A stretch of 32,000 bases of DNA from a bacterium (GTDB lineage Bacteria; UBP7; UBA6624). The position numbers and the translations under genes are program-made. Below the pieces are notes generated by a model, which saw nothing but the letters and a program-made list of their open reading frames with translations, searched no databases and was not told the origin of the DNA. Each line of letters opens with the position of its first letter. Positions within the stretch are counted from its first letter, which is position 1. The stretch spans positions 56,114-88,113 of the forward strand of contig PBAU01000011.1 in assembly GCA_002716355.1 (NCBI GenBank), written 5' to 3'. Shown one piece after another: positions 2,328-25,635 of the stretch.

Positions 2328-5300
2328 ATGATTTTTGGCTTTAAACAAAATCCTAAAAAAAAGATATTAGCTTTTTTTAAAAAAGGTAAAAGCGATAGCG
2401 CTATAGAGCACCTCGAAAAATCCTGGAGTGAGATAGGCGTTCAAGATCGAGTAGAGATATTAGATTCATGGACTTTAAAGAAATCAGATAATGAGATGCA
2501 GCAAAAATGGTTATCTTTTGTTGAGAAGCATGCTTCGGACCAAGGCCCTTTGGATGATCTGGAAAGTAAAATCCGCAAAAATGCTGATAATGATTATGTT
2601 TTTGATTATGAGTTATGGGTTAATTTAGCCAACCAGCATAAAAATGATTTTTTCTTGGTGCTTGCTACTGGAAATGAAATTTTTCCATATGGTGATTATT
2701 CTTCTTTTTTAAAAAATAAAATCGATCCATTATTTATTTTTTTTATGAGGAGAAGATTAGCTTCTGAGTTAAAAATTTGCAAAGAATTATTACCCTTTTT
2801 GAAACACCTTGTGAAAGGTGATAAAGATGATATGGTGAAAAATTTATATGTTGAATATTTATTCAAACATAAGATATGGGAACAAAAAAATATTTCACTT
2901 GTGCAAAATTATTTAGTTAAAAATTTTAAGAATACAGATATTTCAGACTGGGCATTCCAGAATCTAAAAGCCCCTCTTTCGGATAAGTGGTTCGATTTGT
3001 TGAAGCGGTCTTTCAAGAGTAAACCTACGTCTTCTAATAAAAAATTACTTGCATGGTGTTGTTTTGAAAAAGGTATATATTTTGAGCCTTTGGAGGAAGA
3101 GATTGCTAACATAGGTATGCAAAATAAAAATACTAGATTGAAAGCAGTTGACATATTGTTGAGGTCAAAAAAACCAACCCCTCAAACGGTTAAGCTTTTC
3201 TGCCTGTCTTCTTCTGAGTGTCCTTCAAATGAGTTAATTTTGATTTTTTTAATTCAGCATCTTGAAGATGAGAAGTTGTTACACACACTTGTTTCTGCAA
3301 GAAATATTAATGAGAATTTAATTTCAGAATTTTTTTCAAGATGGAAAAAATCAACTCCAAGTGATTTAAATCTTGTTGTTAGGGTTCTTCAGCAATCATT
3401 ATCGTTGGGTTTGAGCTTATCAAAAAATGAATTAAAAATATTCTCTTCTTTAAGAGATCAAAAGGTTCTTTTTTGGCTTGCATCACTTGGGTTTGTTTCT
3501 GAAAATTTTGAATTAGTACAGGATTTAATTGGACGTATGGATAAAAAAATAAAATCTTATTTTGAATACAAGATGAATCTTCATTTTTCAAACAAGAAAT
3601 ACGATTTCTTGAAAAATCATTTTGATTTCCCTTGGAGCCTTATGGACAAGGCTCAATATCTTGAAAGCATTTCAGAATTCACAAAAGCAAATGAGATATA
3701 CAAGGAGGCTTGCGGAACCAAACATTATTCAGGTATATTCGCGAAATTAAAAATGGTAGCTAATGGTGTTGAGGTTTTGACTGATTCTGATTTCAAAAAA
3801 ATGAAAAATATTTCAAGTTCAGACTTAGCTGAACTGTTTTTCTTGAATGGTTTGTTTTACGTGGACAAAGGTAACTGGCTGCAATGTGAAAACTTCTTCA
3901 AGAAAGCTTATGAGCAAAAAGAAGATAAACGTTATATAAGTTCTTTAATTGAAATTTATTACAGATGGTCATCGGAATTGATATTGGAAAAAAAATTATC
4001 CAAAGCACAAGCTATTATTGAAAAAGGCCTGTCTATCGGTGATGATCCAAGATTAGTGAAGAATTTGATTTTGACAAATCCTAAAGTCACATCATGGAAT
4101 CAAATAAAAAAAATAAAATTAAAAAATATTGAAGACGAATTGTTATCAGATTATTTCTGGATTGCCTGGCGTTCTGGAGATTATAAAAATGCTGATGCTG
4201 CCTTAAAGAGATGCATACCTTTAAGCAAATCTGAGACATTTATTAAAAGAATCGCTCGGTATTATTTAGAAATGCCAATTCCAAAAGATGACAGTTTGAA
4301 AGGTAAAATTTGGGAAAAATTACATGTTTTGAATCGTCCATGGCTTACTGCTGCTATAGCTGTATCTCAAGATGAAAAACCACCTTTTCCAAAAGAGGTA
4401 CCGTCTGGAATTGAAAAATTATTAACAGGTTGGAGTTTAATGCAGATTGGCCAATTAGAAAATGCACAATTTCATTTTTCTAAACTTTTAAATGGACCTA
4501 TAAAAAATCTTGGAACTGGCATTAAAAGAGCAAGGTCACATATTGTTTTAGGTTATTGCCTTTTGGCCTGTAGGGATCTTGAATCTGCGGAAGAGGCGTG
4601 GAGCCGAAGTGCTCATTTCGGTATTAGCAATTCCCTTGTTAGCACTTTAAAATTTGTGATTGAACTAGAAAAAGGGGTTAAGAAAGCTTTGGCTGGAAGA
4701 AACCCATTGAAAAATTATGTGAAAGCTTTAAATCATCCAATTACAAAAGATGCTGCCGAAAAAAATTTAGCCATTCATTTTACTTTTTCAGGAGATTTTT
4801 TAAATGCTGGTAAGTATTGGGACAGTCTTGTTGAGAACTTTTCTGAAAAAAAATCCCCAGAAGAAGAGGTTTGGCTTGATATAAGTATCCAGATGGCAAG
4901 CTATTGTCACAAAATTAAGGATGGGAAAGATATTAATTTGATAGAGATGGCAGCTTTGGAGGATGAGGTTGAAAACATAAAGAAACAACTTAAGAGTTAT
5001 AGAGATTTAGGAGTTGATCCAGGTGTTTCTGAAGATGACTTGGAAAGAGCTTATTTCCAGCGTATCAAAAATTTCACACCTGAAAAAAATCCAGAAGAAT
5101 TTCGAAGAATAGAAGAAGCAAGGCAGTTTATTGCAGATCCAGACTTGAGATTAAGGACTGAATTGTTCACTCAGTCTGGCGTAAAAAAGAATAAACTGCT
5201 TCAGTTTTTGTCTTTTTATGAATGTGATCCATTAGATTTTTTTGTTGATCTGGTTGAAAAACCTGATTTTCTTCCTGAATTAACCTTTTTCAAAAATTAT

Positions 5301-5399
5301 GATCTTGAACTGCCAGAAAGTAATGAAGCGATCATTAGAAATTCTTTTGCAGAATGCAGGAGAAATGAACCTTTTGAATCGGAGTCTAATTTCTTTTAA
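2328..5399 (+). CDS. Large (1023 aa) helical-repeat (TPR-like) protein with a C-terminal J-like domain lacking HPD
   Basis: Long uninterrupted ORF with Lys/Leu/Glu-rich helical-repeat character, e.g. GNWLQCENFFKKAYEQ, GDYKNADAALKRCI and GQLENAQFHFSKLL. Near the C-terminus, YRDLGVDPGVSEDDLERAYFQRIKNFTPEKNPEEFRRIEEARQFIADPDLR aligns with the DnaJ J-domain consensus (Y..LGV...AS..EIK.AYR.LA...HPD.NP....F..I.EAY.VLSDP..R). Confidence 0.6.
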   Translation: MIFGFKQNPKKKILAFFKKGKSDSAIEHLEKSWSEIGVQDRVEILDSWTLKKSDNEMQQKWLSFVEKHASDQGPLDDLESKIRKNADNDYVFDYELWVNLANQHKNDFFLVLATGNEIFPYGDYSSFLKNKIDPLFIFFMRRRLASELKICKELLPFLKHLVKGDKDDMVKNLYVEYLFKHKIWEQKNISLVQNYLVKNFKNTDISDWAFQNLKAPLSDKWFDLLKRSFKSKPTSSNKKLLAWCCFEKGIYFEPLEEEIANIGMQNKNTRLKAVDILLRSKKPTPQTVKLFCLSSSECPSNELILIFLIQHLEDEKLLHTLVSARNINENLISEFFSRWKKSTPSDLNLVVRVLQQSLSLGLSLSKNELKIFSSLRDQKVLFWLASLGFVSENFELVQDLIGRMDKKIKSYFEYKMNLHFSNKKYDFLKNHFDFPWSLMDKAQYLESISEFTKANEIYKEACGTKHYSGIFAKLKMVANGVEVLTDSDFKKMKNISSSDLAELFFLNGLFYVDKGNWLQCENFFKKAYEQKEDKRYISSLIEIYYRWSSELILEKKLSKAQAIIEKGLSIGDDPRLVKNLILTNPKVTSWNQIKKIKLKNIEDELLSDYFWIAWRSGDYKNADAALKRCIPLSKSETFIKRIARYYLEMPIPKDDSLKGKIWEKLHVLNRPWLTAAIAVSQDEKPPFPKEVPSGIEKLLTGWSLMQIGQLENAQFHFSKLLNGPIKNLGTGIKRARSHIVLGYCLLACRDLESAEEAWSRSAHFGISNSLVSTLKFVIELEKGVKKALAGRNPLKNYVKALNHPITKDAAEKNLAIHFTFSGDFLNAGKYWDSLVENFSEKKSPEEEVWLDISIQMASYCHKIKDGKDINLIEMAALEDEVENIKKQLKSYRDLGVDPGVSEDDLERAYFQRIKNFTPEKNPEEFRRIEEARQFIADPDLRLRTELFTQSGVKKNKLLQFLSFYECDPLDFFVDLVEKPDFLPELTFFKNYDLELPESNEAIIRNSFAECRRNEPFESESNFF

Positions 5400-5406
5400 T
5401 TGATTT

Positions 5407-5847
5407 ATGTCTGATGATTCTTTTTCTTGGAGTTGTTGTGGTTTTAAAGACGATTACCCTAAATCACTTTTCCCTATAGTTTTATCTTTTGGTATAGCAT
5501 TTTTTGTAACTTCAGTATATTTTAGTTTTTACGAGGCTTTTTTTTGGGGTTTTATAATGATTTTTTCTTGGATTAATTATTTTATTAAATTTGATTATCA
5601 GATCAACAAGAAGCATGTCAGAATAAATTTTTTCAACAATTCGGTAAAGAAAAATTTGAATAAATTTAAATCAGCACATTTTCATTTGAAAGGTGTTTAT
5701 TTATCCCCAACAGCAAAAAAAAGCTTCTATGGCGGCTTAAAGGGTTCATGGATATATTTACCTTCTGATGTTGAGAAAAGGAAAAAGATAATCGATATCG
5801 TTTCAAAAAAAATCCAAATAGTTAAAAGTCACGATCATATAAATTAG
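5407..5847 (+). CDS. Small membrane protein (two N-terminal hydrophobic helices plus a basic about 80-aa tail), function unknown
   Basis: Hydrophobic segments LFPIVLSFGIAFFVTSVYFSFY and FFWGFIMIFSWINYFI are followed by a Lys-rich soluble region. It is tightly packed between its neighbours. The two-TM plus small-domain layout resembles membrane-flanked bacterial PH-like proteins, but that is a guess. Confidence 0.45.
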   Translation: MSDDSFSWSCCGFKDDYPKSLFPIVLSFGIAFFVTSVYFSFYEAFFWGFIMIFSWINYFIKFDYQINKKHVRINFFNNSVKKNLNKFKSAHFHLKGVYLSPTAKKSFYGGLKGSWIYLPSDVEKRKKIIDIVSKKIQIVKSHDHIN

Positions 5848-5865
5848 GATTCCATATTAGGTATT

Positions 5866-6153
5866 ATGTTTAGAAAGATTTTTTCTGGTGAAAGTTGGAA
5901 AGCTGAGAGTGATGAAGATTTTGCTTCAAACCTTGTAGATAACGGCCTAGGGGTTCCTTCAGTGTTTTTATTAGAGTTAGCAAAACCTTTGAACGTTTTG
6001 GCATCTTCGGCATTTACGGTTCTTTCACCAGTCGGACACTTGTTTTTCGATAGGGAAAAATGGGATGTTGTGCCGGATTTTTTTTCAGACAGGAAAAGAA
6101 TCGAAGATATGATAAATTCAATAGAAAAGGAATTAGCTGCTCATGAATCATAA
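5866..6153 (+). CDS. Hypothetical 95-aa protein, probable first gene of the uncharacterised operon
   Basis: The ORF overlaps the downstream ATPase gene by 11 nt (6143..6153). It has an acidic N-terminus, a central hydrophobic stretch VPSVFLLELAKPLNVLASSAFTVLSPVG and an acidic C-terminal helix. I recognised no family. Confidence 0.5.
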   Translation: MFRKIFSGESWKAESDEDFASNLVDNGLGVPSVFLLELAKPLNVLASSAFTVLSPVGHLFFDREKWDVVPDFFSDRKRIEDMINSIEKELAAHES

Positions 6154-7921
6154 AAATTTTATCGCTACTGATTGTGGCTCAACTACTACAAAGGCAATTT
6201 ACATCGAGAAAAAAAAGGATGGCTACAGGTTGGAAAAAAGAGGAGAGGCTCCTACCACCGTCGAAGCCCCTTTTGAGGATGTTACAGCAGGAGTGGTTAA
6301 TTCTGTAGAAGAGTTAGAGGAACTGTCAAAGAAAGCATTTTTATTGAAGGATGGCAAAGGCGTTATTAGGCCTAATGACGGAAAGAAAGGTGTCGATGCT
6401 TATGTTTCAACGTCATCTGCTGGTGGTGGCTTGCAGATGTTGGTAGCTGGAGTTGTGAAAGAAATGACTGCAGAGAGTGCGAATAGAGCTGCTTTGGGTG
6501 CTGGATCAATTGTGATGGATGCTCTTGCAATTAATGATGGTAGAAAAACATGGGAAAGAATTGAGCTAATTAGAAACTTAAGGCCAGACATGATTCTTCT
6601 TTCTGGAGGTACTGATGGTGGTGATGTTAATCATGTTGTTGAAATGGCAGAAGTGATTAAGGAAGCAAAACCAACATCAAGATTGGGTTCGGCTAAATTG
6701 CCAGTGATTTATGCTGGAAACATTGATGCAAGAAATACTGTTCAAGAAATATTAGGTGAAGTTTGTGATTTGTTTATCGTAGATAATCTTAGGCCAACTC
6801 TTGAATCTGAAAATCTTGGACCAGCAAGAGAGAAAATTCATGAGTTGTTTATGGAGCATGTCATGCAACAGGCTCCCGGATATCCAAAATTGATATCCTG
6901 GACTGACGCTCCAATTATGCCTACTCCAGGCGCAGTAGGTTCTTTAATAGAGCGAATTGCTGAAAAAGAAAAAATCCAGGTTGTAGGTGTTGATATAGGT
7001 GGTGCTACCACAGACATTTTCAGTGTTTTTTCTGACAAATTCAATCGAACTGTATCTGCCAATTTAGGTATGTCTTATTCCATTTCTCAAGTTATGGCTG
7101 AAGCTGGTTGGAAAAACGTTATGCGTTGGGTCCCTTTTGAAATGGATGAACAAGATTTGCGAAACAGAATTAAGAACAAAATGATAAGACCAACTACCAT
7201 CCCTCAAACGTTAGAGGAGTTGATTATTGAACAAGCATTAGCAAGAGAGGCTCTTTCTCTTTCTTTTGAACACCATAAATCTTTAGCTGTTGGTCTTAAA
7301 GGTGTTCAGCAACAGAGAACAATAGCAGATGCCTTTTCACAAAAATCAGGAGGAGAATCATTGATTAAAATGTCAGATCTTGATTTGCTTATAGGTTCAG
7401 GAGGTGTTTTGTCGCACGCTCCTAGAAGAGTTCAGTCAATGTCTATGCTGATCGATGCTTTTCAACCTGAGGGAATTACTGAACTGGCGGTAGATAGTAT
7501 TTTTATGATGCCTCATTTAGGAGTTCTTTCAACCATAAATGCTGATGCTGCTGTTGAGGTATTTGATAAGGATTGCTTAGTGAGGTTAGGCACATGTGTT
7601 GCTCCAAAAGGAGAAGCAAGAAAAGGGGAATCCATTTTAAAGGTTGAACTTGCTGATGGTAACTCTTTTGAGATGGGTTTTGGAGAGATAAAACTTATCG
7701 ATCTTGGGGTTGGTGAAAAATTAGAAGCAAAATTGTCTCCTGCAAAAAAGGTTGATTTAGGAGATGGCCCTGGTAAGGAAATGTCCGTCAGCTTAACCGG
7801 TGGGCAAGTCGGTGTTATTTTTGATACTAGAGGTAGACCTTTAACAATATCTACAAATGAGGAGGAAAGGATAAGAAGTTTGAAAACTTGGCATGAAAGT
7901 TTGAATCTTTATCCGGAATAG
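6143..7921 (+). CDS. ASKHA (actin/HSP70-fold) ATPase of the GlmL/MutL (glutamate-mutase accessory protein L) type
   Basis: Two phosphate-binding motifs occur at the spacing expected for this fold: IATDCGSTTTKAIY near the N-terminus and VVGVDIGGATTDIFSV mid-protein. It also has LLSGGTDGGD and LIGSGGVLSHAP, which I associate with the GlmL/MutL and EutA-like reactivase group. This is not the DNA-mismatch-repair MutL. Confidence 0.6.
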   Translation: MNHKNFIATDCGSTTTKAIYIEKKKDGYRLEKRGEAPTTVEAPFEDVTAGVVNSVEELEELSKKAFLLKDGKGVIRPNDGKKGVDAYVSTSSAGGGLQMLVAGVVKEMTAESANRAALGAGSIVMDALAINDGRKTWERIELIRNLRPDMILLSGGTDGGDVNHVVEMAEVIKEAKPTSRLGSAKLPVIYAGNIDARNTVQEILGEVCDLFIVDNLRPTLESENLGPAREKIHELFMEHVMQQAPGYPKLISWTDAPIMPTPGAVGSLIERIAEKEKIQVVGVDIGGATTDIFSVFSDKFNRTVSANLGMSYSISQVMAEAGWKNVMRWVPFEMDEQDLRNRIKNKMIRPTTIPQTLEELIIEQALAREALSLSFEHHKSLAVGLKGVQQQRTIADAFSQKSGGESLIKMSDLDLLIGSGGVLSHAPRRVQSMSMLIDAFQPEGITELAVDSIFMMPHLGVLSTINADAAVEVFDKDCLVRLGTCVAPKGEARKGESILKVELADGNSFEMGFGEIKLIDLGVGEKLEAKLSPAKKVDLGDGPGKEMSVSLTGGQVGVIFDTRGRPLTISTNEEERIRSLKTWHESLNLYPE

Positions 7922-7925
7922 ATTT

Positions 7926-9044
7926 ATGGCACAAGCATTTACCCCAGGTTTAACTAGAGCAGCTGGTTTAAAAGTTATAAAAACAAGACGACTGCCTCTT
8001 TTAGGTGAAACTCTTTTCAAAGTTGGAGATAAAGTTTCAGCTACTGATATTGTTGCTAGAACAGATTTACCAGGACCTGTTTCAGTTTTAAAAATTTCTC
8101 ATAGGTTAGGTTGCCAACCAGGTGAATTAAAGGATTTCATGTCTGTAAAAGAAGGAGATGCCATTTCTAATGGTCAAGTTATTGCAGAGAGCAAAGGTTT
8201 TATGGGGTTTTTTAAATCGGAATTTAAATCTAACACTGATGGAATCATAGAAAGTATATCAAAAGTAAATGGTCAAGTTTATGTAAGAGGCACTCCTATT
8301 CCAGTTGAAATGGAAGCTTATATTGATGGAAAAATTATTGATGTTATGAAGGATGAAGGCGTAATGGTTGAAACTGTTGCGACAATGGTTCAAGGCATTT
8401 TTGGCGTGGGTGGAGAAACTGGAGGAAAGTTAATTTTTGGAGTTGATTCTCCATCTGATGTTTTAGCTCCGTCTGACTTGAAAGAAGATATGAAGGATTG
8501 TATTGTGGTTGCCGGTGCATGCTTGACACAGGAAACCATAATGAAAGCCAAATCTATTGGCATTAAAGGATTGGTGGGTGGAGCGCTTCATGATAAAGAT
8601 TTGAGATCTTTTTTGGGTTATGACATAGGGGTTGCTATTACTGGTAATGAAAATATAGGTATAACCTTGGTGGCAACTGAGGGTTTTGGAGAATTGAAAA
8701 TGGATTCCAATACATGGAGTTTGTTGAAGTCATGTGAAGGTAAAAGAGCAAGCATAAATGGTGCTACACAAATTAGAGCAGGTGTTTTAAGGCCTGAAAT
8801 AATCATCCCTACACCTGAAGAAAAATCAAAAGATTCTGATAGTGGTGCTGGATCATTAGAGATAGGTACTAAAATTGTTGTTATCAGAAACCCTTACTTT
8901 GGATTAACTGGCACTGTTTCAGAACTTATCGTTGAACCACAGAGGCTAGAATCAGAAGCTAAAGTAAGAGTTTTGAAAGTAAAATTAGAAAATGGAGATG
9001 AGGCTATTGTGCCGCGTGCTAATATAGAAAGACTAGCATCATGA
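7926..9044 (+). CDS. Soluble 372-aa protein: N-terminal barrel-sandwich-hybrid (lipoyl/biotinyl-like) repeats, central alpha/beta region, C-terminal KOW-like barrel
   Basis: Hybrid-barrel-like hairpins FKVGDKVSATDIVART and VKEGDAISNGQVIAES. The C-terminal IGTKIVVIRNPYFGLTGTVSEL...KVRVLKVKLENGDEAIVPRANIERL matches the KOW pattern G..V.V..G.F.G..G.V seen in NusG and L24. It starts 4 nt after the ATPase stop. Confidence 0.5.
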   Translation: MAQAFTPGLTRAAGLKVIKTRRLPLLGETLFKVGDKVSATDIVARTDLPGPVSVLKISHRLGCQPGELKDFMSVKEGDAISNGQVIAESKGFMGFFKSEFKSNTDGIIESISKVNGQVYVRGTPIPVEMEAYIDGKIIDVMKDEGVMVETVATMVQGIFGVGGETGGKLIFGVDSPSDVLAPSDLKEDMKDCIVVAGACLTQETIMKAKSIGIKGLVGGALHDKDLRSFLGYDIGVAITGNENIGITLVATEGFGELKMDSNTWSLLKSCEGKRASINGATQIRAGVLRPEIIIPTPEEKSKDSDSGAGSLEIGTKIVVIRNPYFGLTGTVSELIVEPQRLESEAKVRVLKVKLENGDEAIVPRANIERLAS

Positions 9045-9841
9045 TTTTTAATTTTTTTATTTCTTCAGATGCTTTTTTCAAAGCCGATCATGAGGTAACA
9101 CTGATTGCTTGCCTTTTGTTCATGGGAGCTATACTTTACACTCTTTCTAAAGCCAGAAGAGGAGCTGATCTTTATATACGTTCAATTCCAGGTTTGGATG
9201 CTGTTAATGAAGCTATTGGAAGAGCTACCGAAATGGGTAAGCCGATACTCTATTGCCCTGGCTTGTCAAGCGCAGCTGACGTTGCAACCTTGGCAAGTTT
9301 AAACATATTAGGTAGGGTTGCTCAAAGGGTTGCAAATTATGAAAGTCGCTTGATAGTTCCGCATAGAGATCCTATTGTTATGACTGTAGCAAAAGAAACT
9401 TTGAAGGATGCTTATTTACAAGCTGGAAAACCTGAAATATTAAATGAAGAGGATAATTTTTTCATTACTGAAGATCAGTTTGGTTATACTGCTGCTGTTA
9501 ATGGAATAATGGTAAGAGAAAGACCAGCAACTGTATTTTTGCAAGGCATGTTTTTTGCTGAATCTTTATTGTTGGCTGAAACAGGAAATTCAATTGGTGC
9601 AATTCAAATTGCAGGAACTGATGCTGTGCATCAGTTGCCATTCTTTGTTGCTTCTTGTGATTACACGCTTATTGGAGAGGAGCTGTATGCCGCTGGAGCA
9701 TACTTATCAAAAGCTCCTGATTTAATGTCATCACTTAAAGCTGCTGACTTGATCAAAGGAATCTTATGGGTTTTGATAGTTATCGGTCTTGTCTTGACTT
9801 TTGTGGGCAACGCATCTATTTTTGAGGTATTTGGCAAATGA
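9041..9841 (+). CDS. Module 1, subunit A: protein with N- and C-terminal membrane anchors, uncharacterised family
   Basis: ATGA overlap with the upstream stop. N-terminal TM VTLIACLLFMGAILYTL and C-terminal TM ILWVLIVIGLVLTFVG. Clear paralog of 12130..12939, sharing the near-invariant block AESLLLAETGNSIGAIQIAGTDAV.QLPFF..SCDYTLIGEELYAA.AYLS. Confidence 0.8.
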   Translation: MIFNFFISSDAFFKADHEVTLIACLLFMGAILYTLSKARRGADLYIRSIPGLDAVNEAIGRATEMGKPILYCPGLSSAADVATLASLNILGRVAQRVANYESRLIVPHRDPIVMTVAKETLKDAYLQAGKPEILNEEDNFFITEDQFGYTAAVNGIMVRERPATVFLQGMFFAESLLLAETGNSIGAIQIAGTDAVHQLPFFVASCDYTLIGEELYAAGAYLSKAPDLMSSLKAADLIKGILWVLIVIGLVLTFVGNASIFEVFGK

Positions 9842-10506
9842 AAACAAAACTTCCTGTAACCATTGCTTTTCTGACTGGTTTATTTATGGCTTTTGCTTAT
9901 TTTGTTGAAAGGGATAATGTTGCATGGGTAAGGATTCTTTACGAAGAGTTGAATCAGAACAACATTGTTCTTGCTGTGTTTGTTTTGTTTTTAGGGGTTG
10001 GTACACTTTTAATCCGTCATGCAAAAAAAATCAGAGATAAAAATTCTGATTCAATTTATTCTTGGGTTGTTATAGTGTCGACTCTTGCAGTTGCATACAT
10101 TGGTTTGTTTCAAACCACTGGAGAAAGCATTGGGGCAAATGAAAATTTTCAGTGGATATTTAATAATTTTCAGGTTCCTCTTTCTGCAACTATGTTTTCA
10201 CTTTTAGCATTTTTTGTTGCAAGTGCTGCCTACAGAGCTTTTAGAGCAAGAAACACAGAGGCAACTTTATTGCTGATTGCCGCAGCAATAGTGATGATAG
10301 GAAGGGTACCTATTGGATCGGTTATTTCCGACAGTTTGAGTTTAACTGGATCTTTTTCTTTGCCTGCAATTGCTGAATGGATTTTAGATATCCCAAATAC
10401 GGCTGCAAAGAGAGCTATAACTATTGGTATCGGATTAGGGATGACGGCTACTGCAATAAAGATTATTTTCGGTATAGAGAGAACTTATATGGGAAGTGGT
10501 AAATAA
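9838..10506 (+). CDS. Module 1, subunit B: polytopic membrane protein (about 6 hydrophobic segments), uncharacterised family
   Basis: ATGA overlap with subunit A. Hydrophobic segments include LPVTIAFLTGLFMAFAYFV, IVLAVFVLFLGVGTLLI, WVVIVSTLAVAYIGLF, ATMFSLLAFFVASAAY, ATLLLIAAAIVMIG and AITIGIGLGMTATAIKIIFG. Paralog of 12936..13580. Confidence 0.8.
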   Translation: MKTKLPVTIAFLTGLFMAFAYFVERDNVAWVRILYEELNQNNIVLAVFVLFLGVGTLLIRHAKKIRDKNSDSIYSWVVIVSTLAVAYIGLFQTTGESIGANENFQWIFNNFQVPLSATMFSLLAFFVASAAYRAFRARNTEATLLLIAAAIVMIGRVPIGSVISDSLSLTGSFSLPAIAEWILDIPNTAAKRAITIGIGLGMTATAIKIIFGIERTYMGSGK

Positions 10507-11363
10507 TGAATATTTGGGATAAGTTGTCTTCAATTGATAGAAGGTGGATATTTCTTGCAATGGCCATTTTCGTTTCATGGCCAGTATTAAAACCCTTAGG
10601 CCTTCCAGTAACAACAACAAAAGAAGTTGAAAGTCTTTATAGCTTTATTGAGGAAATCGAAGATAAGAAACCAATAATTTTAGCTCTTGATTACGGTCCA
10701 TCTACTGCTCCTGAACTAACACCTATGGCAAAAGCTGTTATGAGGCATGCTGTAAGCAAAGGGATTCCTGTTGTGGGGGTAAGTTTAGCTCCAGATGCTC
10801 CAGGGGTTGCAAATGATATCTGGAAATGGGCGGAAGAAGAATTAGGCGCTATTCCGGGTGAGGATATTGCATACCTTGGATACAAAGCAGGAACAACAAA
10901 TGTTATCTTGCAGATGGGACAGGGTATATCTAAGGCTTTTCCAAAGGATTATTATGGCAACAACACAGATGATTTGGAAATCATGGAAGGTTTTGAAAGT
11001 TTAAAAGATGCCTCTCTTGTTCTCGGTCTTGAGGCAACTGCCATTATGGATTTATGGATTCAGTATGCTGGTGACCAAATGGGTGTTCCTGTTGCCGGCG
11101 GAATGACAGCGGTTTCTGCGCCTGAGGCTTATGTGTTTTATCAGTCAGGGCAAATAGTTGGTTTGATGGGAGGCATGAAAGGCGGAGCTGAATATGAACT
11201 CTTAGTTGGTGCACCTGGAAATGCTGTTCAGGGCATGGATGCTCAATCACTAGGACATATTGTTATTATTGTTTTTATCATTTTTGGAAATCTTGGTTTT
11301 TTCTTAGGTAAAAAAGGCCAAGACGTTTCCAGATTAAAGTCTTTAAGAGGTGATCAGAAATGA
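10506..11363 (+). CDS. Module 1, subunit C: about 220-aa soluble domain bracketed by N- and C-terminal TM helices, uncharacterised family
   Basis: TAATG 1-nt overlap with subunit B. N-terminus MNIWDKLSSIDRRWIFLAMAIFVSWPVL and C-terminal anchor LGHIVIIVFIIFGNLGFFLG. The central region has alternating beta-alpha character (KPIILALDYGPS, GIPVVGVSL). Paralog of 13577..14437. Confidence 0.8.
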   Translation: MNIWDKLSSIDRRWIFLAMAIFVSWPVLKPLGLPVTTTKEVESLYSFIEEIEDKKPIILALDYGPSTAPELTPMAKAVMRHAVSKGIPVVGVSLAPDAPGVANDIWKWAEEELGAIPGEDIAYLGYKAGTTNVILQMGQGISKAFPKDYYGNNTDDLEIMEGFESLKDASLVLGLEATAIMDLWIQYAGDQMGVPVAGGMTAVSAPEAYVFYQSGQIVGLMGGMKGGAEYELLVGAPGNAVQGMDAQSLGHIVIIVFIIFGNLGFFLGKKGQDVSRLKSLRGDQK

Positions 11364-12133
11364 TTTTGAATTTAATTGCACCTCTTGGGACTACAGAAGG
11401 TTTAGGTATATGGATTGCCGCTTTCTTGACTTTATGTATTTTTTCTTTCCTGTATAAAGACAATCCTTTTTATAAATTTGCCGAACATTTATTTGTTGGT
11501 GTCTCTAGTGGATATTACATTTCTATCTATTATTGGAACACATTGAAGCCAAACATGATTGACGAATTAGTGAAAGGCTTTAAGGCTTTAGGTCAGGGTA
11601 ATACGCAAAAAGCTTTTGGTCTTGATGAAAGTGGCGCTGTTATGGCTGAGCCTCATTTAAGAATGTTGATACCACTAATGCTGGGTATTTTTATATTGTT
11701 GATATTTATATCTAGAAAAAATGCTTGGTTATCAAGGATATCATTTGCTTGGTATATAGGTGTTGCAAGTGGAATAGCCATACCAACTGCTATGTCAACC
11801 AGGGTTCTCCTACAGGCTCAAGGCTCCATAAGAGATTTTTGTTCATATAATTCCGATTGTGCGACCTCTGCAGGTTTGGATCCTCAGGTTGCAACTACAG
11901 CACTATGGATCAATGCCTTTTTGCTTTTGATTGGAACATTGTCTGCTTTAGCTTATTTCTTCTTCAGCTTACCCTCCAAAGGAGCACTTAAAGTTATGAA
12001 TAAAGTCGGAATTTACTTTTTGATGATTTCTTTTGGAGCTTCATTTGGGTATACGGTTATGGCTCGTATAAGTCTTCTTATCGGCAGGCTGCAGTTTCTT
12101 TTTTATGAGTGGCTTGGTATTACTATTTCATGA
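11360..12133 (+). CDS. Module 1, subunit D: polytopic membrane protein with a conserved C-x5-C loop, uncharacterised family
   Basis: ATGA overlap with subunit C. Contains GLGIWIAAFLTLCIFSFLYKDNPFYKFAEHLFVG, further hydrophobic helices and the loop FCSYNSDCATS. Paralog of 14434..15174. Confidence 0.8.
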   Translation: MILNLIAPLGTTEGLGIWIAAFLTLCIFSFLYKDNPFYKFAEHLFVGVSSGYYISIYYWNTLKPNMIDELVKGFKALGQGNTQKAFGLDESGAVMAEPHLRMLIPLMLGIFILLIFISRKNAWLSRISFAWYIGVASGIAIPTAMSTRVLLQAQGSIRDFCSYNSDCATSAGLDPQVATTALWINAFLLLIGTLSALAYFFFSLPSKGALKVMNKVGIYFLMISFGASFGYTVMARISLLIGRLQFLFYEWLGITIS

Positions 12134-12939
12134 TTTTTAATTTTTTAAATTTAATGTTTCAAATTCAAATAAAAGAGGGAACAGGTCCTGTTTTTTTTGT
12201 TTTGGTTCTTTTTGTCGCAGCTCTTTTTTTCTTTTTAGATAAAGCAAGAAAAGGTGCAACTTTTAAGATTAGAAAGATTGCTGGTCTTGATGCTGTAAAT
12301 GAGGCTATAGGAAGGGCTACAGAAATGGGCAAATCTATCCTTTACACAACAGGATTAGAAACTGCAAGTCATATAGCGACCATTGCTTCATTGACCATAT
12401 TGTCTAGGGTTGCCAAAAGAGCAGCAAGATATGGAACTAGGTTACAGGTTCCTTCTTTTGATCCGATTGTTATGAGTTTAAGTCAAGAGATAGTACGAGA
12501 ATCTTATCTTGAGGAAGGAATGGTTGACAGCTTTAAAGGCGATGACATTTTTTATTTAACTCAGGAGCAATTTGCATACACTGCAGCTGTTGAAGGTGTT
12601 TTGGTAAGAGAAAAACCTGCAACTGTTTTTTTAATGGGTTATTTTTATGCAGAATCTTTACTATTGGCTGAAACTGGCAATTCGATTGGGGCGATTCAAA
12701 TTGCTGGAACAGATGCTGTTACACAGCTTCCATTTTTTATCGTTTCCTGTGATTACACATTGATTGGTGAGGAGCTTTATGCAGCAAGTGCTTACCTTTC
12801 AGAGGATTCAAATATTATTTCATCTTTAAAGGCCCAAGATTTTGGAAAAGCTTTATTATGGATATTTTTGCTTTTGGGAAGTATTGTAACTTTTGCTGGT
12901 TCTACTAAATTCCTTTCATTATTAGGAGCTTCTACTTGA
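12130..12939 (+). CDS. Module 2, subunit A (paralog of 9041..9841)
   Basis: The track ORF begins at 12109. ATG at 12130 forms an ATGA overlap with the upstream stop and gives MIFNFL..., matching the MIFNFF... start of the module 1 copy. The two copies are identical at 47 of 51 residues across the AESLLLAETGNS...AYLS block (hand count). Confidence 0.8.
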   Translation: MIFNFLNLMFQIQIKEGTGPVFFVLVLFVAALFFFLDKARKGATFKIRKIAGLDAVNEAIGRATEMGKSILYTTGLETASHIATIASLTILSRVAKRAARYGTRLQVPSFDPIVMSLSQEIVRESYLEEGMVDSFKGDDIFYLTQEQFAYTAAVEGVLVREKPATVFLMGYFYAESLLLAETGNSIGAIQIAGTDAVTQLPFFIVSCDYTLIGEELYAASAYLSEDSNIISSLKAQDFGKALLWIFLLLGSIVTFAGSTKFLSLLGAST

Positions 12940-13580
12940 ACAACAGAGGACCTCTTTTGATTGCATTTGTTTGCGGTATGTTGATGATGGCTGAATCTTT
13001 CCTTGACTATTCTTGGTTGAATAGTTTTGCTGAATGGGTTCAGAAATACTACATCATTATTGCTGCGTTTGCAATTGTTTTAGGTGTTGCGAGCCTATTT
13101 AAGCTTCACTTGGCAAAACTTAAAAGGAAAGAGGACGGCTGGAGATATTCTCTTGTGGTATTTTTTGGCTTTTTTGCAATGATAATCACTGGTTTTTTCA
13201 TGAATGATGATGGTCTTGTTGGAACTAAGCATCCATGGAACGCTTGGTTGTATAACAATGTTCAGCTTCCATTGGGAGCGACAATGTTTTCGCTTTTGGC
13301 ATTTTTTATTGCAAGTGCAGCCTATAGGGCTTTCAGAGCAAGGTCTTTAGAAGCAACTTTACTGCTTGTGGCAGCATGTTTGGTTATGCTTGGTCAGGTG
13401 CCAATACTTACTGGCGGTATTTTTGATAATCTTCCTGAGATAAAACAATGGATTTTAGATATTCCAAATATGGCCAGCAAAAGAGCAATCATGATTGGTG
13501 TTGGTTTAGGGATGATGTCAACAGCATTAAAGATTATTTTCGGTATTGAAAAAACATATCTAGGTGGAAGTGAAGAATGA
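12936..13580 (+). CDS. Module 2, subunit B (paralog of 9838..10506)
   Basis: The TTG start overlaps the upstream TGA (TTGA). This start is supported by alignment of MNNRGPLLIAFVCGMLMMAESF with MKTKLPVTIAFLTGLFMAFAYF. The block VQLPLGATMFSLLAFFIASAAYRAFRARSLEATLLLVAACLVMLGQVPIL is identical at 38 of 50 positions to the module 1 copy (hand count). Confidence 0.8.
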   Translation: MNNRGPLLIAFVCGMLMMAESFLDYSWLNSFAEWVQKYYIIIAAFAIVLGVASLFKLHLAKLKRKEDGWRYSLVVFFGFFAMIITGFFMNDDGLVGTKHPWNAWLYNNVQLPLGATMFSLLAFFIASAAYRAFRARSLEATLLLVAACLVMLGQVPILTGGIFDNLPEIKQWILDIPNMASKRAIMIGVGLGMMSTALKIIFGIEKTYLGGSEE

Positions 13581-14437
13581 ACATTTGGGACAGACTGCAA
13601 TCGATAGACAGGCGTTGGATTTTTTTAGTTATGTTTATTGTTATCATCATTCCATTGATGAATCCACAAAGCTTGGATATAAATGTTAGTGAGCCAACAA
13701 GAAAAGCTTTTGAGAGAGTCGAAAAGATTCCTAGTGATAGCAATGTTTTAATATCTTGGGATTTTGATCCTGGAAGTCAGGCAGAATTATTGCCAACAGC
13801 TAAAGCAATGTTGCATCAATTGTTCAAAAAAGATGTGAATATTGTTGTTATTACCTTATTGCCCGCTGCTCCAACCTTGGCTGATACAACTTTGAATGAA
13901 ATCTCATCTATTTACAAGAAAGAAGAAGGGGTCGATTGGGTTAATCTTGGTTTTAAGCCAGGATTGGATATTGTTGTTAAAAGCATTGGAACAGATATTT
14001 ATGAAATTTTTCCAGCTGATGACAAAGGAAAAAGGGTTGAAAGTATACCTTTGATGAAAGATATAAGAAATTACGATGATTTTGATTTAGTTATTGATTT
14101 AAGCGCTGGCTCAAGTGTTGACTTTTTTGTCGAACAGGCTCATGGCAGATACGGTGTTGATCTTGTTGCTGCAGCAACTGGGGTTATGATTGGTGATTTT
14201 TACCCTTATTTAGAAGCAAACCAGCTTCAAGGATTAGTAGGAGCTCTTGTAGGTGCTGCTGAATACGAGAAGCTAATGGAGATTTCTTATGGTCTTGAAC
14301 CTGATAAAGCAACTGCTGGAATGCAGGCTCAAGCAAAAGCTCACATTGCCATAATAATTTTTATAATCTTGGGCAATATTGGTTTTTTTGCGAAAAGAAA
14401 TAAAACTTCACCAAAATTGGAGAGTTTAAGTAAATGA
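13577..14437 (+). CDS. Module 2, subunit C (paralog of 10506..11363)
   Basis: ATGA overlap. The N-terminus MNIWDRLQSIDRRWIFLVMFIVIIIPLM matches MNIWDKLSSIDRRWIFLAMAIFVSWPVL. It shares the G(A/G)AEYE.L motif and the C-terminal anchor AHIAIIIFIILGNIGFF. Confidence 0.8.
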   Translation: MNIWDRLQSIDRRWIFLVMFIVIIIPLMNPQSLDINVSEPTRKAFERVEKIPSDSNVLISWDFDPGSQAELLPTAKAMLHQLFKKDVNIVVITLLPAAPTLADTTLNEISSIYKKEEGVDWVNLGFKPGLDIVVKSIGTDIYEIFPADDKGKRVESIPLMKDIRNYDDFDLVIDLSAGSSVDFFVEQAHGRYGVDLVAAATGVMIGDFYPYLEANQLQGLVGALVGAAEYEKLMEISYGLEPDKATAGMQAQAKAHIAIIIFIILGNIGFFAKRNKTSPKLESLSK

Positions 14438-15174
14438 TTTTTAATTTACTAATTGCAAACCCTTTAAGCCCTGATGGTATTGGGGTTTGGATTGCTGCCA
14501 TACTGACAATAGCAATTTTTTCTTTTCTATACAAGGATAACCCTTTATTTAAATTTGCTGAACACCTTTATGTTGGAATTGGTGCTGGTTACATTGTTGT
14601 TGTAGCTTGGCACAATGATATTGCAACAAATGTTATTCAGCCTTTTAAAGATGGATTGACAGCTATTCAAAACAATGACCCTAGTGGTTGGGTAAATATG
14701 GTGAATCCAATCATGGCATGTGTTATTGGAAGTTTTCTTTTCTTTCCTGTTGTAGCTCCAAAATTTAGATGGCTTACAAAATATGCTTTTGCTTTTATAC
14801 TAGGAACCTTTTCAGGTATCAAGGTAGCACCTGTTATTAAAGAGAAATTAATTACCCAACTTTCATCTACGCTTGATCGTATTTGTGCAGTTTCGAATGA
14901 GTGTGCAGCACAGGTTGCGTCAATAAGCTACACGCCAGAAACATCAGCTATGTTTAATGCTGCTTTCGTTCTTTTGGGTGTTTTGTGTGGTTTGGTTTAT
15001 TTTTTCTTTTCTTTAGAGCATAAAGGCGGAACTAAGATTGTAGCCAAAACAGGCATACTTATCTTGATGGTTGGGTTTGGTGCAAGTTTTGGTTTAACAG
15101 TCATGGGACGTGTTTCTCTATTGATTGATAGAATTCAATTCCTTTTAACTGATTGGTTAGGCCTTATCGCTTAA
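14434..15174 (+). CDS. Module 2, subunit D (paralog of 11360..12133)
   Basis: ATGA overlap. GIGVWIAAILTIAIFSFLYKDNPLFKFAEHLYVG matches the module 1 copy. Also conserved are the C-x5-C loop (ICAVSNECAAQ) and the C-terminus GASFG.TVM.R.SLLI.R.QFL...WLG. Confidence 0.8.
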   Translation: MIFNLLIANPLSPDGIGVWIAAILTIAIFSFLYKDNPLFKFAEHLYVGIGAGYIVVVAWHNDIATNVIQPFKDGLTAIQNNDPSGWVNMVNPIMACVIGSFLFFPVVAPKFRWLTKYAFAFILGTFSGIKVAPVIKEKLITQLSSTLDRICAVSNECAAQVASISYTPETSAMFNAAFVLLGVLCGLVYFFFSLEHKGGTKIVAKTGILILMVGFGASFGLTVMGRVSLLIDRIQFLLTDWLGLIA

Positions 15175-15188
15175 GTCTTATAAATTTA

Positions 15189-16106
15189 ATGATTGAAGAA
15201 CAAATTTCTATACCGTTAAAAAACTCAAATGAAGCTTTAAAGCTTTTAGGGGTAGGTGATAAAAATGCCAAAAAACTCAAGCGTAAATTTGGTGTCAGAT
15301 TATCTATAGAGGATAATGAATTATTGATTAAGGGGAATACTGTTAATACAGAAATTATCAAGGTGCGCTTAAAAGAGGTGATAAAAAAGTTAAGAAACGA
15401 TATGGACATGCATTCAAATATTGTTGAAACGATATTGATGGGTGATAATAACAATAGCTCTTTTGAGGTTAACAGCGAGAAAGTTGAGCCAAAAAGCATT
15501 GGTCAATCTCAATTAATAGATAAAATTTTAAAAGATCCACTGGTTCTTGTAACTGGCCCTGCGGGTACAGGAAAAACATTTTTAACAGTTGCTTGCGCAT
15601 GTAAGCTTCTTGAAGAAGGTAGTATAGAGAGAATTATTCTCTGCAGGCCTGTTGTTGAGGCTGGAGAAAGCCTTGGCTTTTTGCCAGGTGATATTGACTC
15701 CAAAGTTTTCCCTTATTTCAGGCCTTTGCATGATTCTTTAGTTAAGCTTTTAGGGTTTCCTGCAACAAAAAGAATGTTTGATTCAGGTGTGATCGAAATG
15801 GCACCATTAGCCTATATGAGAGGAAGAACATTGGAAAATTCTTTTTTGATATTAGATGAAGCTCAGAATACAACTATTGCTCAAATGAAAATGTTTTTAA
15901 CAAGGATGGGCAAGGGTTCTAAAACTGTTGTGACTGGCGATCCTAGCCAATGTGATCTTCCAAAAAATAAAATAAGTGGCTTGACACATTCTTTGAATAT
16001 TTTGTCAAAAATTGACAATATTGGTGTTATTGGGTTAAAAGGTGCGGATATGGTCAGACATCCGCTTGTTGGGAAGATTGACAAAGCTTTTGGAGCTGAG
16101 TGTTAA
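15189..16106 (+). CDS. phoH: PhoH-like ATPase (YbeZ family)
   Basis: Walker A in LVLVTGPAGTGKTFL, followed by the PhoH hallmarks ILCRPVVEAGESLGFLPGD, APLAYMRGRTL, ILDEAQN and VVTGDPSQCDLP. The track ORF starts at TTG 15153 inside the previous gene. ATG at 15189 lies just after that gene's stop at 15174. Confidence 0.85.
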   Translation: MIEEQISIPLKNSNEALKLLGVGDKNAKKLKRKFGVRLSIEDNELLIKGNTVNTEIIKVRLKEVIKKLRNDMDMHSNIVETILMGDNNNSSFEVNSEKVEPKSIGQSQLIDKILKDPLVLVTGPAGTGKTFLTVACACKLLEEGSIERIILCRPVVEAGESLGFLPGDIDSKVFPYFRPLHDSLVKLLGFPATKRMFDSGVIEMAPLAYMRGRTLENSFLILDEAQNTTIAQMKMFLTRMGKGSKTVVTGDPSQCDLPKNKISGLTHSLNILSKIDNIGVIGLKGADMVRHPLVGKIDKAFGAEC

Positions 16107-20332: not shown

Positions 20333-21132
20333 AGCAAAGTATCATTATTCATGCTGGTGCTGGCAAGCACAGAGCTTCATTAAAGGATGTAGATCGTATT
20401 GTTAAACTCGCAGTTGAAGAAGGGTTCAAGCAAAAAAAAAATGGTGCTTTAGACATGTCTGTTAAAGCTGTTGAGGTTATGGAAAGTTCAGGATTTTTAA
20501 ATTCAGGATCAGGGAGTGTTAGGCAGGATGACGGAAAAGTCAGGATGGATGGATCGATTGCATTAAGCAATGGTGCAGTTTCTTCTGTTTTAGGCTTGCC
20601 AGGATGTTGGAATGTTTCACTTATTTGTAAAACATTGTTAAGTTCAAAGAATCCAATGATGTGCGGAAGGCAATTGAAACATAAATTACAACATTTAGGT
20701 TTTAATGAACTTGAACCTGATTTGGAATCATACAGAGAGTGGTTTAACCTTGGTCAAAATTCACCTGGAACTGTTGGAGCTGTAGCTTTTGATGGCGATA
20801 CATTATGTGCTGTTACAACAACAGGTGGTAGATCTGGAGTAGAAGCTGGAAGAATAGGTGATAGTGGTATCATTGGCTCAGGATCATCAGCAAATTCAAT
20901 TGGTGCTGTTTCATGCACTGGTATAGGGGAAGCAATAGTCAGATCAAGATTGTCAGATTATGCTTTGAGGTTAATGGATAGTATGAATCCAATGAAAGCT
21001 TGTCAAGAATCAATAAAAAAATTAGAACAGGATATTTTTGATGAGGGTATTGGTGGTTTAATTGCAATAAATAATAAAGGTGAAATTGGTTGGGCTTTCA
21101 ACACTCAGGAAATGCCTATTGGATTCAAATAG
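20329..21132 (+). CDS. Ntn-hydrolase of the isoaspartyl peptidase / plant-type L-asparaginase family
   Basis: N-terminal IIIHAGAG. The autoproteolytic nucleophile context GTVGAVAFDG is followed by AVTTTGG and the Gly-rich GRIGDSGIIGSG. The TTG start overlaps the upstream TGA. At 267 aa it is somewhat short for the family. Confidence 0.65.
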   Translation: MKQSIIIHAGAGKHRASLKDVDRIVKLAVEEGFKQKKNGALDMSVKAVEVMESSGFLNSGSGSVRQDDGKVRMDGSIALSNGAVSSVLGLPGCWNVSLICKTLLSSKNPMMCGRQLKHKLQHLGFNELEPDLESYREWFNLGQNSPGTVGAVAFDGDTLCAVTTTGGRSGVEAGRIGDSGIIGSGSSANSIGAVSCTGIGEAIVRSRLSDYALRLMDSMNPMKACQESIKKLEQDIFDEGIGGLIAINNKGEIGWAFNTQEMPIGFK

Positions 21133-21143
21133 AATTTAATGGT

Positions 21144-21959: not shown

Positions 21960-22045
21960 ATACTTACGTATTTAAAAAATATCATGTTTTGAAAATATGC
22001 TTTATACTTTATAGGTTTGAATGAATTTGATTCAAATGTAAAAAA
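21960..22045 (+). promoter_or_regulatory. AT-rich 86-bp gap upstream of the pseudopilin operon; weak sigma70-like candidate
   Basis: This is one of very few non-coding gaps in the window. TTGAAA (21989-21994), a 17-nt spacer and TAGGTT (22012-22017) make a poor -10. TATACT at 22003-22008 is a better -10 hexamer but has no good -35 partner. This is a weak hand call. Confidence 0.25.
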
Positions 22046-24516: not shown

Positions 24517-24531
24517 ATGGAGGTTGTAAAA

Positions 24532-25632: not shown

Positions 25633-25635
25633 TTT

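Follow-up and report, generated by a model that had tools for sequence, protein, structure and literature searches.

The 32,000-nucleotide (nt) stretch of DNA analyzed here (the window; positions 56,114–88,113 of contig PBAU01000011.1, from a bacterium of the GTDB lineage UBP7; UBA6624) carries at positions 5866–15174 a cluster of eleven genes that very probably constitute one functional system. The cluster encodes seven protein families: a small subunit (S), an actin-fold ATPase (M), a predicted cytoplasmic partner of M (K) and four membrane proteins (A, B, C, and D), the latter present as two consecutive sets. Only M (MutL) and A (DUF6754, a domain of unknown function) have family models, while S, K, B, C, and D are without one. 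We infer that S, M, K, and A to D form one physical complex, and our preferred but still tentative reading is that a pair of ABCD modules forms the basis of a transmembrane machine driven by ATP. The initial annotation of this DNA had suggested a novel membrane machine with an unmatched architecture, and this proposal was supported, as no known complex was matched and the genes proved syntenic across phyla.

Eleven co-directional open reading frames (ORFs), all on the + strand, were read from the ORF list at the coordinates given earlier. The cluster opens with S (5866–6153, 95 amino acids [aa]), followed by M (6143–7921, 592 aa), a MutL/GlmL-family ATPase of the acetate and sugar kinase/Hsc70/actin (ASKHA) fold, and K (7926–9044, 372 aa). 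The first membrane set consists of A1 (9041–9841, 266 aa), a DUF6754 protein; B1 (9838–10506, 222 aa), with six transmembrane segments; C1 (10506–11363, 285 aa), a bitopic-like protein; and D1 (11360–12133, 257 aa), a polytopic protein, the last three being described by hydropathy. The second comprises another DUF6754 protein, A2 (12130–12939, about 269 aa), and the paralogs B2 (12936–13580, 214 aa), C2 (13577–14437, 286 aa), and D2 (14434–15174, 246 aa), the last of which closes the conserved unit. The mechanical ORF list opens A2 at GTG 12109, but the ATG at 12130, assumed in the initial annotation, is the likelier start, as it gives an ATGA overlap with the D1 stop codon and an N terminus (MIFNF...) like that of A1.

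The overlap of S and M is 11 nt, the gap between M and K is 4 nt, and reading the junction sequences verified the overlap signatures at the others: ATGA at 9041, 9838, 11360, 12130, 13577, and 14434, TTGA at 12936, and TAATG at 10506. These overlaps had been taken as the signature of a single stoichiometric complex, a claim that did not hold, since unrelated genes of the window are equally tightly coupled. The downstream genes phoH, 7TM-HD, ybeY, two corC-like genes, and that for an asparaginase also overlap by 4–7 nt, and window neighbors in general, functionally unrelated ones included, mostly overlap by 1–11 nt or sit less than 20 nt apart. Every gene-like ORF of at least 100 aa between positions 1 and 32000 lies on the + strand, and the GC skew is positive all along. 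The genome is very compact, and tight coupling is one of its general properties and no evidence for a complex. Because the overlaps also join unrelated genes here, the unit was defined by its synteny across phyla.

Relatives of A, K, and M were numerous (at least 8,000 each at 90% clustering), and a pattern scan of species-representative genomes yielded at least 587 confirmed matches. According to the record labels, they belong to WOR-3/Stahlbacteria, Eisenbacteria, Fermentibacteria/Hyd24-12/Aegiribacteria, Cloacimonadota, TA06/Edwardsbacteria, Mcinerneyibacteriota, Hydrothermae/Coatesbacteria, and Nitrospira/Nitrospiraceae. Poribacteria also carry system genes, several closed chromosomes among them, and a few metagenome-assembled genomes (MAGs) labeled Planctomycetota, Ignavibacteriales, or Desulfuromonas matched as well. 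The window A protein is 98% identical to its counterpart on a Tara Oceans MAG contig (L004).

For the synteny analysis, the window proteins were mapped onto 79 non-redundant A-anchored and 82 M-anchored loci. An unbroken A-B-C-D run was present in 68 of the 79 A-anchored loci, representing many phyla, and many of the remaining loci were short contigs; in other genomes, B always came after A. Where an M-anchored locus extended for at least 5 kb downstream, K was found in 41 of 45 cases and A in 33 of 45, and M-K was directly followed by A in 41 of all 82 M-anchored loci. The M, K, and A–D genes, whose co-occurrence across lineages the initial annotation had left as a question, are therefore syntenic across phyla. 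The same annotation had raised the possibility that their adjacency is fortuitous, with M-K and ABCD being two unrelated systems that happen to be neighbors. It is true that the two parts lie apart in some genomes and that the gene overlaps of the window are not specific to the cluster. Nevertheless, the loci with A directly after M-K come from several phyla and conserve the order K then A, A is common where M loci leave room for it, and S moves between a position before M and one between K and A. In a WOR-3 genome, moreover, the order S-M-K-ABCD-ABCD is identical to that of the window, although A to D are only 36–58% identical (M, ~66%). These observations make a chance adjacency highly improbable.

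The arrangement of the genes varies among lineages. In Nitrospira the order is (S)-M-K-ABCD, in another clade it is M-K-S-ABCD, and in Fermentibacteria-type loci it is ABCD-MK, with M and K fused in one protein of 916–923 aa. Fusions were located at L019:4694–7444, L024:17483–20245, and L042:4684–7455, either downstream of ABCD or at a distance of 4 kb, and no other single finding points as strongly to a joint function of M and K. The chromosomes of Poribacteria carry ABCD and K in separate places. Two metagenome contigs (L093 and L165) carry a tandem M-K-M-K, in which the second K has an N-terminal extension of ~80 aa, and no ABCD is found in these loci.

M matched the Pfam family MutL (PF13941) over residues 7–478 (E = 6e-130, 434 bits vs. 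a cut-off of 27), in agreement with its first description as a GlmL/MutL-type actin-fold ATPase, and both motifs pointed out then, DCGSTTTK and DIGGATTD, are present. In an alignment of 31 sequences from several phyla the motifs ATDCGSTTTKA, GVDIGGATTD, and GSGGVLSHAP, corresponding to phosphate-1, phosphate-2, and adenosine, were invariant, so that the nucleotide-binding site appears intact and looks catalytically competent. The mean column identity of this alignment was 74%, and across phyla M shows 64–67% identity over 99% of its length. Identity as high as that of M and A is usually seen in core molecular machines, not in accessory factors. Approximately 115 additional C-terminal residues beyond the MutL match probably form a beta-rich domain. 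Profile searches found no sequence relative of M in the PDB.

GlmL itself is a chaperone that reactivates glutamate mutase (PMC4682846). M remained below the curated NCBIfam cut-offs for GlmL proper (231.8 vs. 475 bits for NF040745 and 217.8 vs. 600 bits for Or-4) and did not reach that of TIGR01319 (glmL_fam; 177.9 vs. 204 bits). No mutase or B12-binding domain was detected in any ORF of the window, nor were mutase genes among the recurrent neighbors in 166 loci, and the identification of M as GlmL proper was rejected on these grounds. M resembles GlmL, DdrA, and EutA in its match to the MutL family and its invariant nucleotide-binding motifs, and the analogy suggests that M is probably a conformational switch, driven by ATP, whose target is a partner protein. 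It differs from them in the extended C terminus, in the lack of mutase and B12 genes nearby, in its pairing with K, to which it is sometimes fused, and in its linkage to four membrane proteins, and it is far more conserved (~65% across phyla) than would be expected of an accessory chaperone.

Since M has an actin fold with actin/MreB-like sequence conservation, we also considered a membrane-anchored cytoskeleton, in which M would polymerize like MreB, FtsA, or ParM, K and S would tether it to ABCD, and the assembly would organize envelope synthesis or cell shape. The operon logic, an actin-fold protein encoded with bitopic and polytopic membrane proteins, resembles that of mreBCD. Similarly, in the MreB-RodZ/MreC/MreD, PilM-PilN-PilO, and GspL-GspM systems an actin-superfamily protein is encoded with bitopic or polytopic inner-membrane partners that carry periplasmic domains. 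Envelope genes also lie nearby in several genomes: lpxB in the window, dxr/rseP in WOR-3, a gene for an Omp85-family protein in Fermentibacteria, and cdsA in a further clade. However, M had no detectable similarity to the MreB, FtsA, or PilM families in Pfam, no family match to MreB, PilM, PilN, or GspL was obtained, and those systems have no counterparts to K, A, B, C, and D. M, with ~600 aa, belongs to the MutL/GlmL branch, which has been grouped with the non-polymerizing enzymes and chaperones of the actin superfamily (PMC5597319). A cytoskeletal role is thus improbable.

Hydropathy predicted no transmembrane segments in either M or K. The AlphaFold2 (AF2) model of K (predicted local distance difference test, pLDDT, 85; predicted template-modeling score, pTM, 0.72) consists of a beta region at residues 11–160, which includes a barrel-sandwich hybrid, a central alpha/beta domain at 164–295, in which glycine-rich loops are invariant, and a KOW-like barrel at 316–369. 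The KOW-like C terminus noticed initially was confirmed as a KOW-type SH3-like barrel by both profile and fold: a PDB profile search matched NusG, Spt5, and uL24 at E values of 0.05–0.5, over the KOW domain only, and Foldseek matched KOW domains with a probability of up to 1.00 and a local template-modeling (TM) score of up to 0.85. Beyond this KOW/NusG part, Foldseek found nothing in the PDB, with global TM-scores below 0.2. K is ~50% identical across phyla and contains the invariant glycine-rich loops QGIFGxGGE, GVAITG, TEGFG, and GATQIRAGVxRPE. Its Pfam matches were a marginal one to Biotin_lipoyl (23.8 vs. a cut-off of 22.1 bits, with no single domain passing alone) and a weak one to RnfC_N, and some K homologs have precomputed PF00364 or PF13375 matches.

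A lysine of K, Lys97, lies in an exposed hairpin that is modeled with lower confidence, and it is present in 58 of 62 and in 17 of 18 sequences. It is replaced by Arg in P0134 and P0138, by Asn in P0144, and by Gly in P0161, which represent separate real lineages. Because of these replacements, a covalent modification of K cannot be general, and K was rejected as a lipoyl or biotinyl carrier.

S combines a conserved hydrophobic helical hairpin with a following amphipathic helix, and the core of its alignment reads ...APAIxFLESxKPLSFLGxQAL...P. It has no Pfam or NCBIfam match. In 38 of the 166 loci a homolog immediately precedes M or lies between K and A, and S is a genuine seventh conserved component.

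Among the membrane proteins, both A copies are full-length members of DUF6754 (PF20539; for A1, E = 2.5e-112 and 374.6 bits, and for A2, E = 2.2e-108 and 361.7 bits, vs. a cut-off of 27). The initial annotation could place none of the membrane proteins in a known transporter, respiratory, secretion, or motility family by motif; A does fall in a catalogued family, one without an assigned function. The Pfam entry describes a domain of unknown function and holds no record of linkage to M, K, S, B, C, or D. For B1, only sub-threshold and inconsistent Pfam matches were obtained; C1 and D1 had no Pfam, NCBIfam, or PDB match, and D2 had none in Pfam. When 30 homologs each of B, C, and D were scanned against Pfam at E values up to 1, no consistent family emerged. 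The fibronectin type III (FN3) domain in the N-terminal extension of A homologs was all that profile searches of the PDB matched for the four membrane proteins.

The predicted topologies, based on hydropathy and positive-inside counts, agree with the initial description of A and C as proteins with a soluble domain between two anchors and of B and D as proteins with about six transmembrane segments. A has its N terminus outside, a transmembrane helix, a conserved cytoplasmic domain of ~200 aa, a second helix, and its C terminus outside. Most A homologs are ~400 aa long and carry a classical signal peptide and then a periplasmic FN3 domain ahead of the first transmembrane helix, an arrangement that places the DUF6754 domain in the cytoplasm; A1 and A2 of the window are without FN3. 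Some A homolog ORFs (L071:567–4049 and others) are much longer, with a mechanically called length of up to 1160 aa, and their large N-terminal parts before the DUF6754 region are either real extensions, with additional FN3 or other domains, or ORF-calling artifacts. C shows the opposite orientation, with both termini inside and an alpha/beta domain of ~215 aa between two helices; since K/R-rich termini flank these helices, the domain is periplasmic. B has six transmembrane segments and its N terminus inside, and D has about 5–6, with the N terminus probably outside.

A is highly conserved, with ~55–60% identity across phyla and 70 invariant positions, most of them in the block PAT...AES..LAETGN..GAIQIAGTD...QLPFF...CDYTLIGEELYAA. 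The conserved block AESLLLAETGNSIGAIQIAGTD, singled out in the initial annotation, was found in both A copies. For B, C, and D, the mean column identity is 35–48%, and their conserved residues are mostly small packing residues (G/A/S) and arginines of cytoplasmic loops. AF2 modeled A poorly (pLDDT 58); the best-conserved segment, residues 148–215, scored below 35 and is effectively unmodeled, a behavior that would fit a surface folding only against partners. With this model, Foldseek found nothing with an E value below 0.29.

The second A-B-C-D set is a duplicate of the first, as had been proposed: in blastp comparisons, A1 and A2 are 56% identical (E = 4e-108), B1 and B2 47% (E = 9e-65), C1 and C2 33% (E = 4e-47), and D1 and D2 41% (E = 1e-62). 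Two modules are, however, not the general arrangement. Around a constant M-K, the number of cassettes is one or two; single cassettes outnumber double ones among the mapped loci, and two A-B-C-D runs occurred in 12 of the 79 A-anchored loci. In neighbor-joining trees, which are rough and without support values, first and second copies formed separate multi-lineage groups, and C2 of the window fell together with C proteins from the second cassette of WOR-3 and Cloacimonadota loci. This separation suggests that the duplication is old and did not take place recently in the window genome. No ancestry within the module was detected: in hhalign comparisons, the seven families were not detectably related to one another, so that the pairings A~C, B~D, and K~A were rejected and the idea of inverted pairs is one of topology only.

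Taken together, we favor a single multi-subunit inner-membrane machine made from seven unrelated protein families. Its cytoplasmic power unit would consist of M, its obligate partner K, and probably S, and would dock on the conserved cytoplasmic domain of A, while A, B, C, and D would form the membrane module. Nothing sizeable of this module would reach into the periplasm apart from the alpha/beta domain of C and the FN3 domain that A carries in most lineages. Binding and hydrolysis of ATP by M would drive conformational switching of K and A, much as the characterized relatives GlmL, DdrA, and EutA act on a partner subunit, and the motion would pass through the A/B/C/D helix bundle, moving either a substrate or the periplasmic domain of C. 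The working unit would contain two ABCD modules, which would be a heterodimer of paralogous modules in the window genome and a pair of identical ones in single-cassette lineages. An envelope- or lipid-related cargo is our leading guess, weakly held.

Several observations weigh against this reading. Many genomes, such as those of Poribacteria, keep ABCD apart from M and K, with K standing alone there, so M and K are perhaps accessory and not the motor. The poor model of A leaves the docking of M and K on this protein without structural support. The alignments of B, C, and D contain no conserved mid-membrane carboxylate, which argues against an ion pump, although not against mechanotransmission. 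Finally, the gene context beyond the seven families varies by clade and points to no single substrate.

Homology of A to D to a characterized complex, which would have removed the novelty claimed at first, was sought with Pfam, NCBIfam, and PDB profiles and by comparison with Rnf, and none was found. The parts of Rnf/Na+-NQR are similar in outline, with a barrel-sandwich cytoplasmic subunit, two subunits of ~6 transmembrane segments, and anchored subunits whose soluble domain is periplasmic in one case and cytoplasmic in the other, but the window system has an ATPase in place of the NADH or ferredoxin module. When profiles of A, K, C, B, D, and M were compared with E. coli RsxA, B, C, D, G, and E, the hhalign probability was below 8% for every pairing. 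The best was K with RsxC (7.8%), over only 39 columns of the barrel-sandwich domain, and the comparisons with the six-transmembrane subunits RsxA and RsxE gave at most 0.6%. Neither B nor D matched the Rnf-Nqr family of Pfam, no conserved Cys clusters were seen in the K, A, or C alignments, and no iron-sulfur (Fe-S), flavin, or B12 motif was conserved in those of A, K, B, C, and D. An Rnf/Nqr identity was rejected accordingly.

The analogy we favor is with the mechanotransmission systems MacB, FtsEX, and LolCDE, which share the concept of a cytoplasmic ATPase, membrane subunits with no obvious substrate channel, and a periplasmic domain in which the work may take place. The window system differs from them in having an ASKHA instead of an ATP-binding cassette (ABC) ATPase, different membrane proteins, and seven subunit families, and no ABC_tran, Walker-type, or FtsX match was obtained for the eleven proteins in Pfam or NCBIfam. 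A defense system was also considered and rejected, as PADLOC gave no match for S, M, K, A, B, C, D, or the two ORFs upstream. In the literature searched, no paper mentions DUF6754, PF13941, or TIGR01319, and none links GlmL-like genes with these membrane proteins. Judged by sequence, the system is outside the known kinds tested, and fold-level searches could still reveal a distant relationship. It is possible, but doubtful, that it represents a new class of primary-active machine with an ASKHA motor, as opposed to an ABC, P-type, rotary, or AAA+ one. In such a machine, ATP hydrolysis would be coupled through the ABCD pair to transport or to periplasmic mechanical work. It would serve a core role in the envelope of many little-studied phyla, among them WOR-3, Eisenbacteria, Fermentibacteria, Cloacimonadota, Poribacteria, and Nitrospira.

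Beyond the seven families, the 166 loci share no universally linked gene. The initial annotation had found no functional hint in the flanking genes, which is only partly true, because other lineages do provide weak hints in the form of gcv and ligase-like genes on the one hand and of cdsA and a lipid kinase on the other. The latter pair characterizes one clade (L088, L089, L092, L098, L108, and others), with cdsA in 19 loci and a YegS/DAGK-like lipid kinase gene in 14, immediately upstream of M, and with S sitting between K and A. In Nitrospira, a GDSL lipase gene lies upstream and a Memo-like gene downstream. Genes for membrane lipids and the envelope recur in this way, but not consistently enough to name a substrate.

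Such neighbors bear on an alternative in which ABCD is a membrane enzyme, acting for example on a lipid or envelope precursor, and M-K is its ATP-dependent activating or reactivating chaperone, with no powered transport, the part assigned to GlmL, DdrA, and EutA toward their own enzymes. The family membership of M alongside the reactivating chaperone GlmL agrees with it, and so does the ability of ABCD to stand apart from M-K. The cytoplasmic domain of A is also enzyme-like in its conservation, with a block of invariant Cys, Asp, and Glu, and cdsA, the YegS-like kinase, the GDSL lipase, or lpxB adjoins the cluster in several clades. This lipid-gene context is nonetheless limited to particular clades, no catalytic or cofactor-binding family was detected in A to D, and B12, Fe-S, and flavin motifs are not conserved. 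In addition, the conservation of M exceeds that of the proposed client, which would be unusual for a chaperone. We regard this alternative as unlikely.

The other recurrent context is that of glycine cleavage. In a large clade of the M tree, with WOR-3 and Eisenbacteria among its members, the cluster is flanked by gcvT-gcvH-gcvPA-gcvPB on one side and by the gene for a divergent LplA-like ligase on the other (L085, L086, L095, L099, L164, L001, and other loci), the ligase being found downstream in at least 10 loci and scoring 53–89 bits against cut-offs of 280–480. No L-protein gene is present in these gcv-flanked operons, and in 12 of the loci an extra ORF of 148–180 aa precedes S. As all gcv-linked loci fall in a single clade of the M tree, they appear to reflect one retained ancestral arrangement and not repeated recruitment. 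In Fermentibacteria, genes for a SerA-like dehydrogenase and a split transketolase adjoin the cluster, and a SerA-like dehydrogenase gene is also found near K in Poribacteria.

From these neighbors one could propose that ABCD is a solute transporter, either secondary or dependent on a binding domain, possibly for a cargo related to glycine, serine, or C1 metabolism, with C binding the substrate and M-K phosphorylating, trapping, or gating it. The ASKHA fold includes many small-molecule kinases, and the periplasmic alpha/beta domain of C, held by two transmembrane helices, would suit substrate binding; the gcv genes, the lipoate-ligase-like gene, and the SerA-like dehydrogenases would fit the cargo. 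We consider it rather unlikely, given that the gcv linkage is confined to one clade while the contexts in other clades are unrelated, that 60–65% conservation across phyla and seven subunits are atypical for a nutrient transporter, and that no similarity to any transporter family was found.

The same loci could suggest a glycine-cleavage or lipoyl-linked complex, in which K would be a swinging-arm carrier modified by the LplA-like ligase and, much as in the biotin-dependent Na+-pumping decarboxylases, would link a decarboxylation or redox step of glycine cleavage with the membrane module. Besides the gcvTHP genes upstream, the ligase downstream, and the missing L-protein gene, the marginal Biotin_lipoyl match of K and its nearly invariant hairpin lysine speak for such a complex. 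That lysine is, however, Arg, Asn, or Gly in separate lineages, there are neither redox cofactor motifs nor conserved membrane carboxylates, and the gcv/ligase context is absent from the window, Nitrospira, Poribacteria, and the cdsA clade. We give this proposal very little credence and retain the ATP-driven machine as the preferred reading.

In the window, the neighbors of the cluster are lpxB, gidB, a gene for a TPR/J-like protein of 1023 aa, and phoH-ybeY-corC. The TPR protein (2328–5399), encoded upstream, has a weak C-terminal DnaJ match (E = 1e-5, below the cut-off) and is not conserved beside the cluster in other lineages; the proximity of a J domain to an ATPase of the Hsp70 superfamily is curious but probably coincidental. 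Between it and S lies a hydrophobic ORF of 146 aa (5407–5847), which had no Pfam, NCBIfam, or PADLOC match and was not seen beside the cluster in other lineages. Elsewhere, the phoH gene that follows D2 shows no linkage to the cluster. Its longest ORF (15153–16106) begins at a TTG at 15153, 22 nt inside D2, and the true start is probably further downstream, since the PhoH domain begins at residue 111.

The GC content of the cluster (6001–15000) is 0.36–0.40, compared with 0.30–0.34 in the 6 kb upstream and 0.34–0.36 in the 3 kb downstream; it dips to 0.29–0.32 further on and is ~0.38 from 23 kb. The raised value in the cluster may reflect the amino acid constraint on very conserved proteins rather than a foreign origin. 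Rfam gave no riboswitch or other RNA leader match anywhere in the window, and promoter and terminator scans performed no better than on shuffled controls. Farther downstream (21090–31006), a prepilin peptidase gene is followed by genes for four unusually large proteins (343–503 aa) whose only match is an N-terminal pilin methylation motif and then by one for a 1288-aa protein without a Pfam match; the region possibly encodes a type IV pilus or pseudopilus of an atypical kind.

The system described here comprises seven co-inherited protein families, five of them without a family model, in hundreds of species-level genomes across many phyla, among them those of a nitrifier (Nitrospira) and of sponge symbionts (Poribacteria). 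Two of the families were already catalogued: A as DUF6754, with no function assigned, and M as an accessory protein of a mutase. Although the proteins are conserved to about the degree of core housekeeping ones, the literature searched makes no mention of the system. Genes now named 'glutamate mutase L', 'methylaspartate mutase', 'fibronectin type III domain-containing protein', or 'hypothetical' could be named better on this basis. If M powers the membrane modules, the system would be a new kind of energy-coupled membrane device and would give the large MutL/GlmL family of ATPases a second role, unrelated to mutases. Even if the mechanism is another one, the parts list, the topology, the M-K fusion, and the module variants define a concrete and testable complex.

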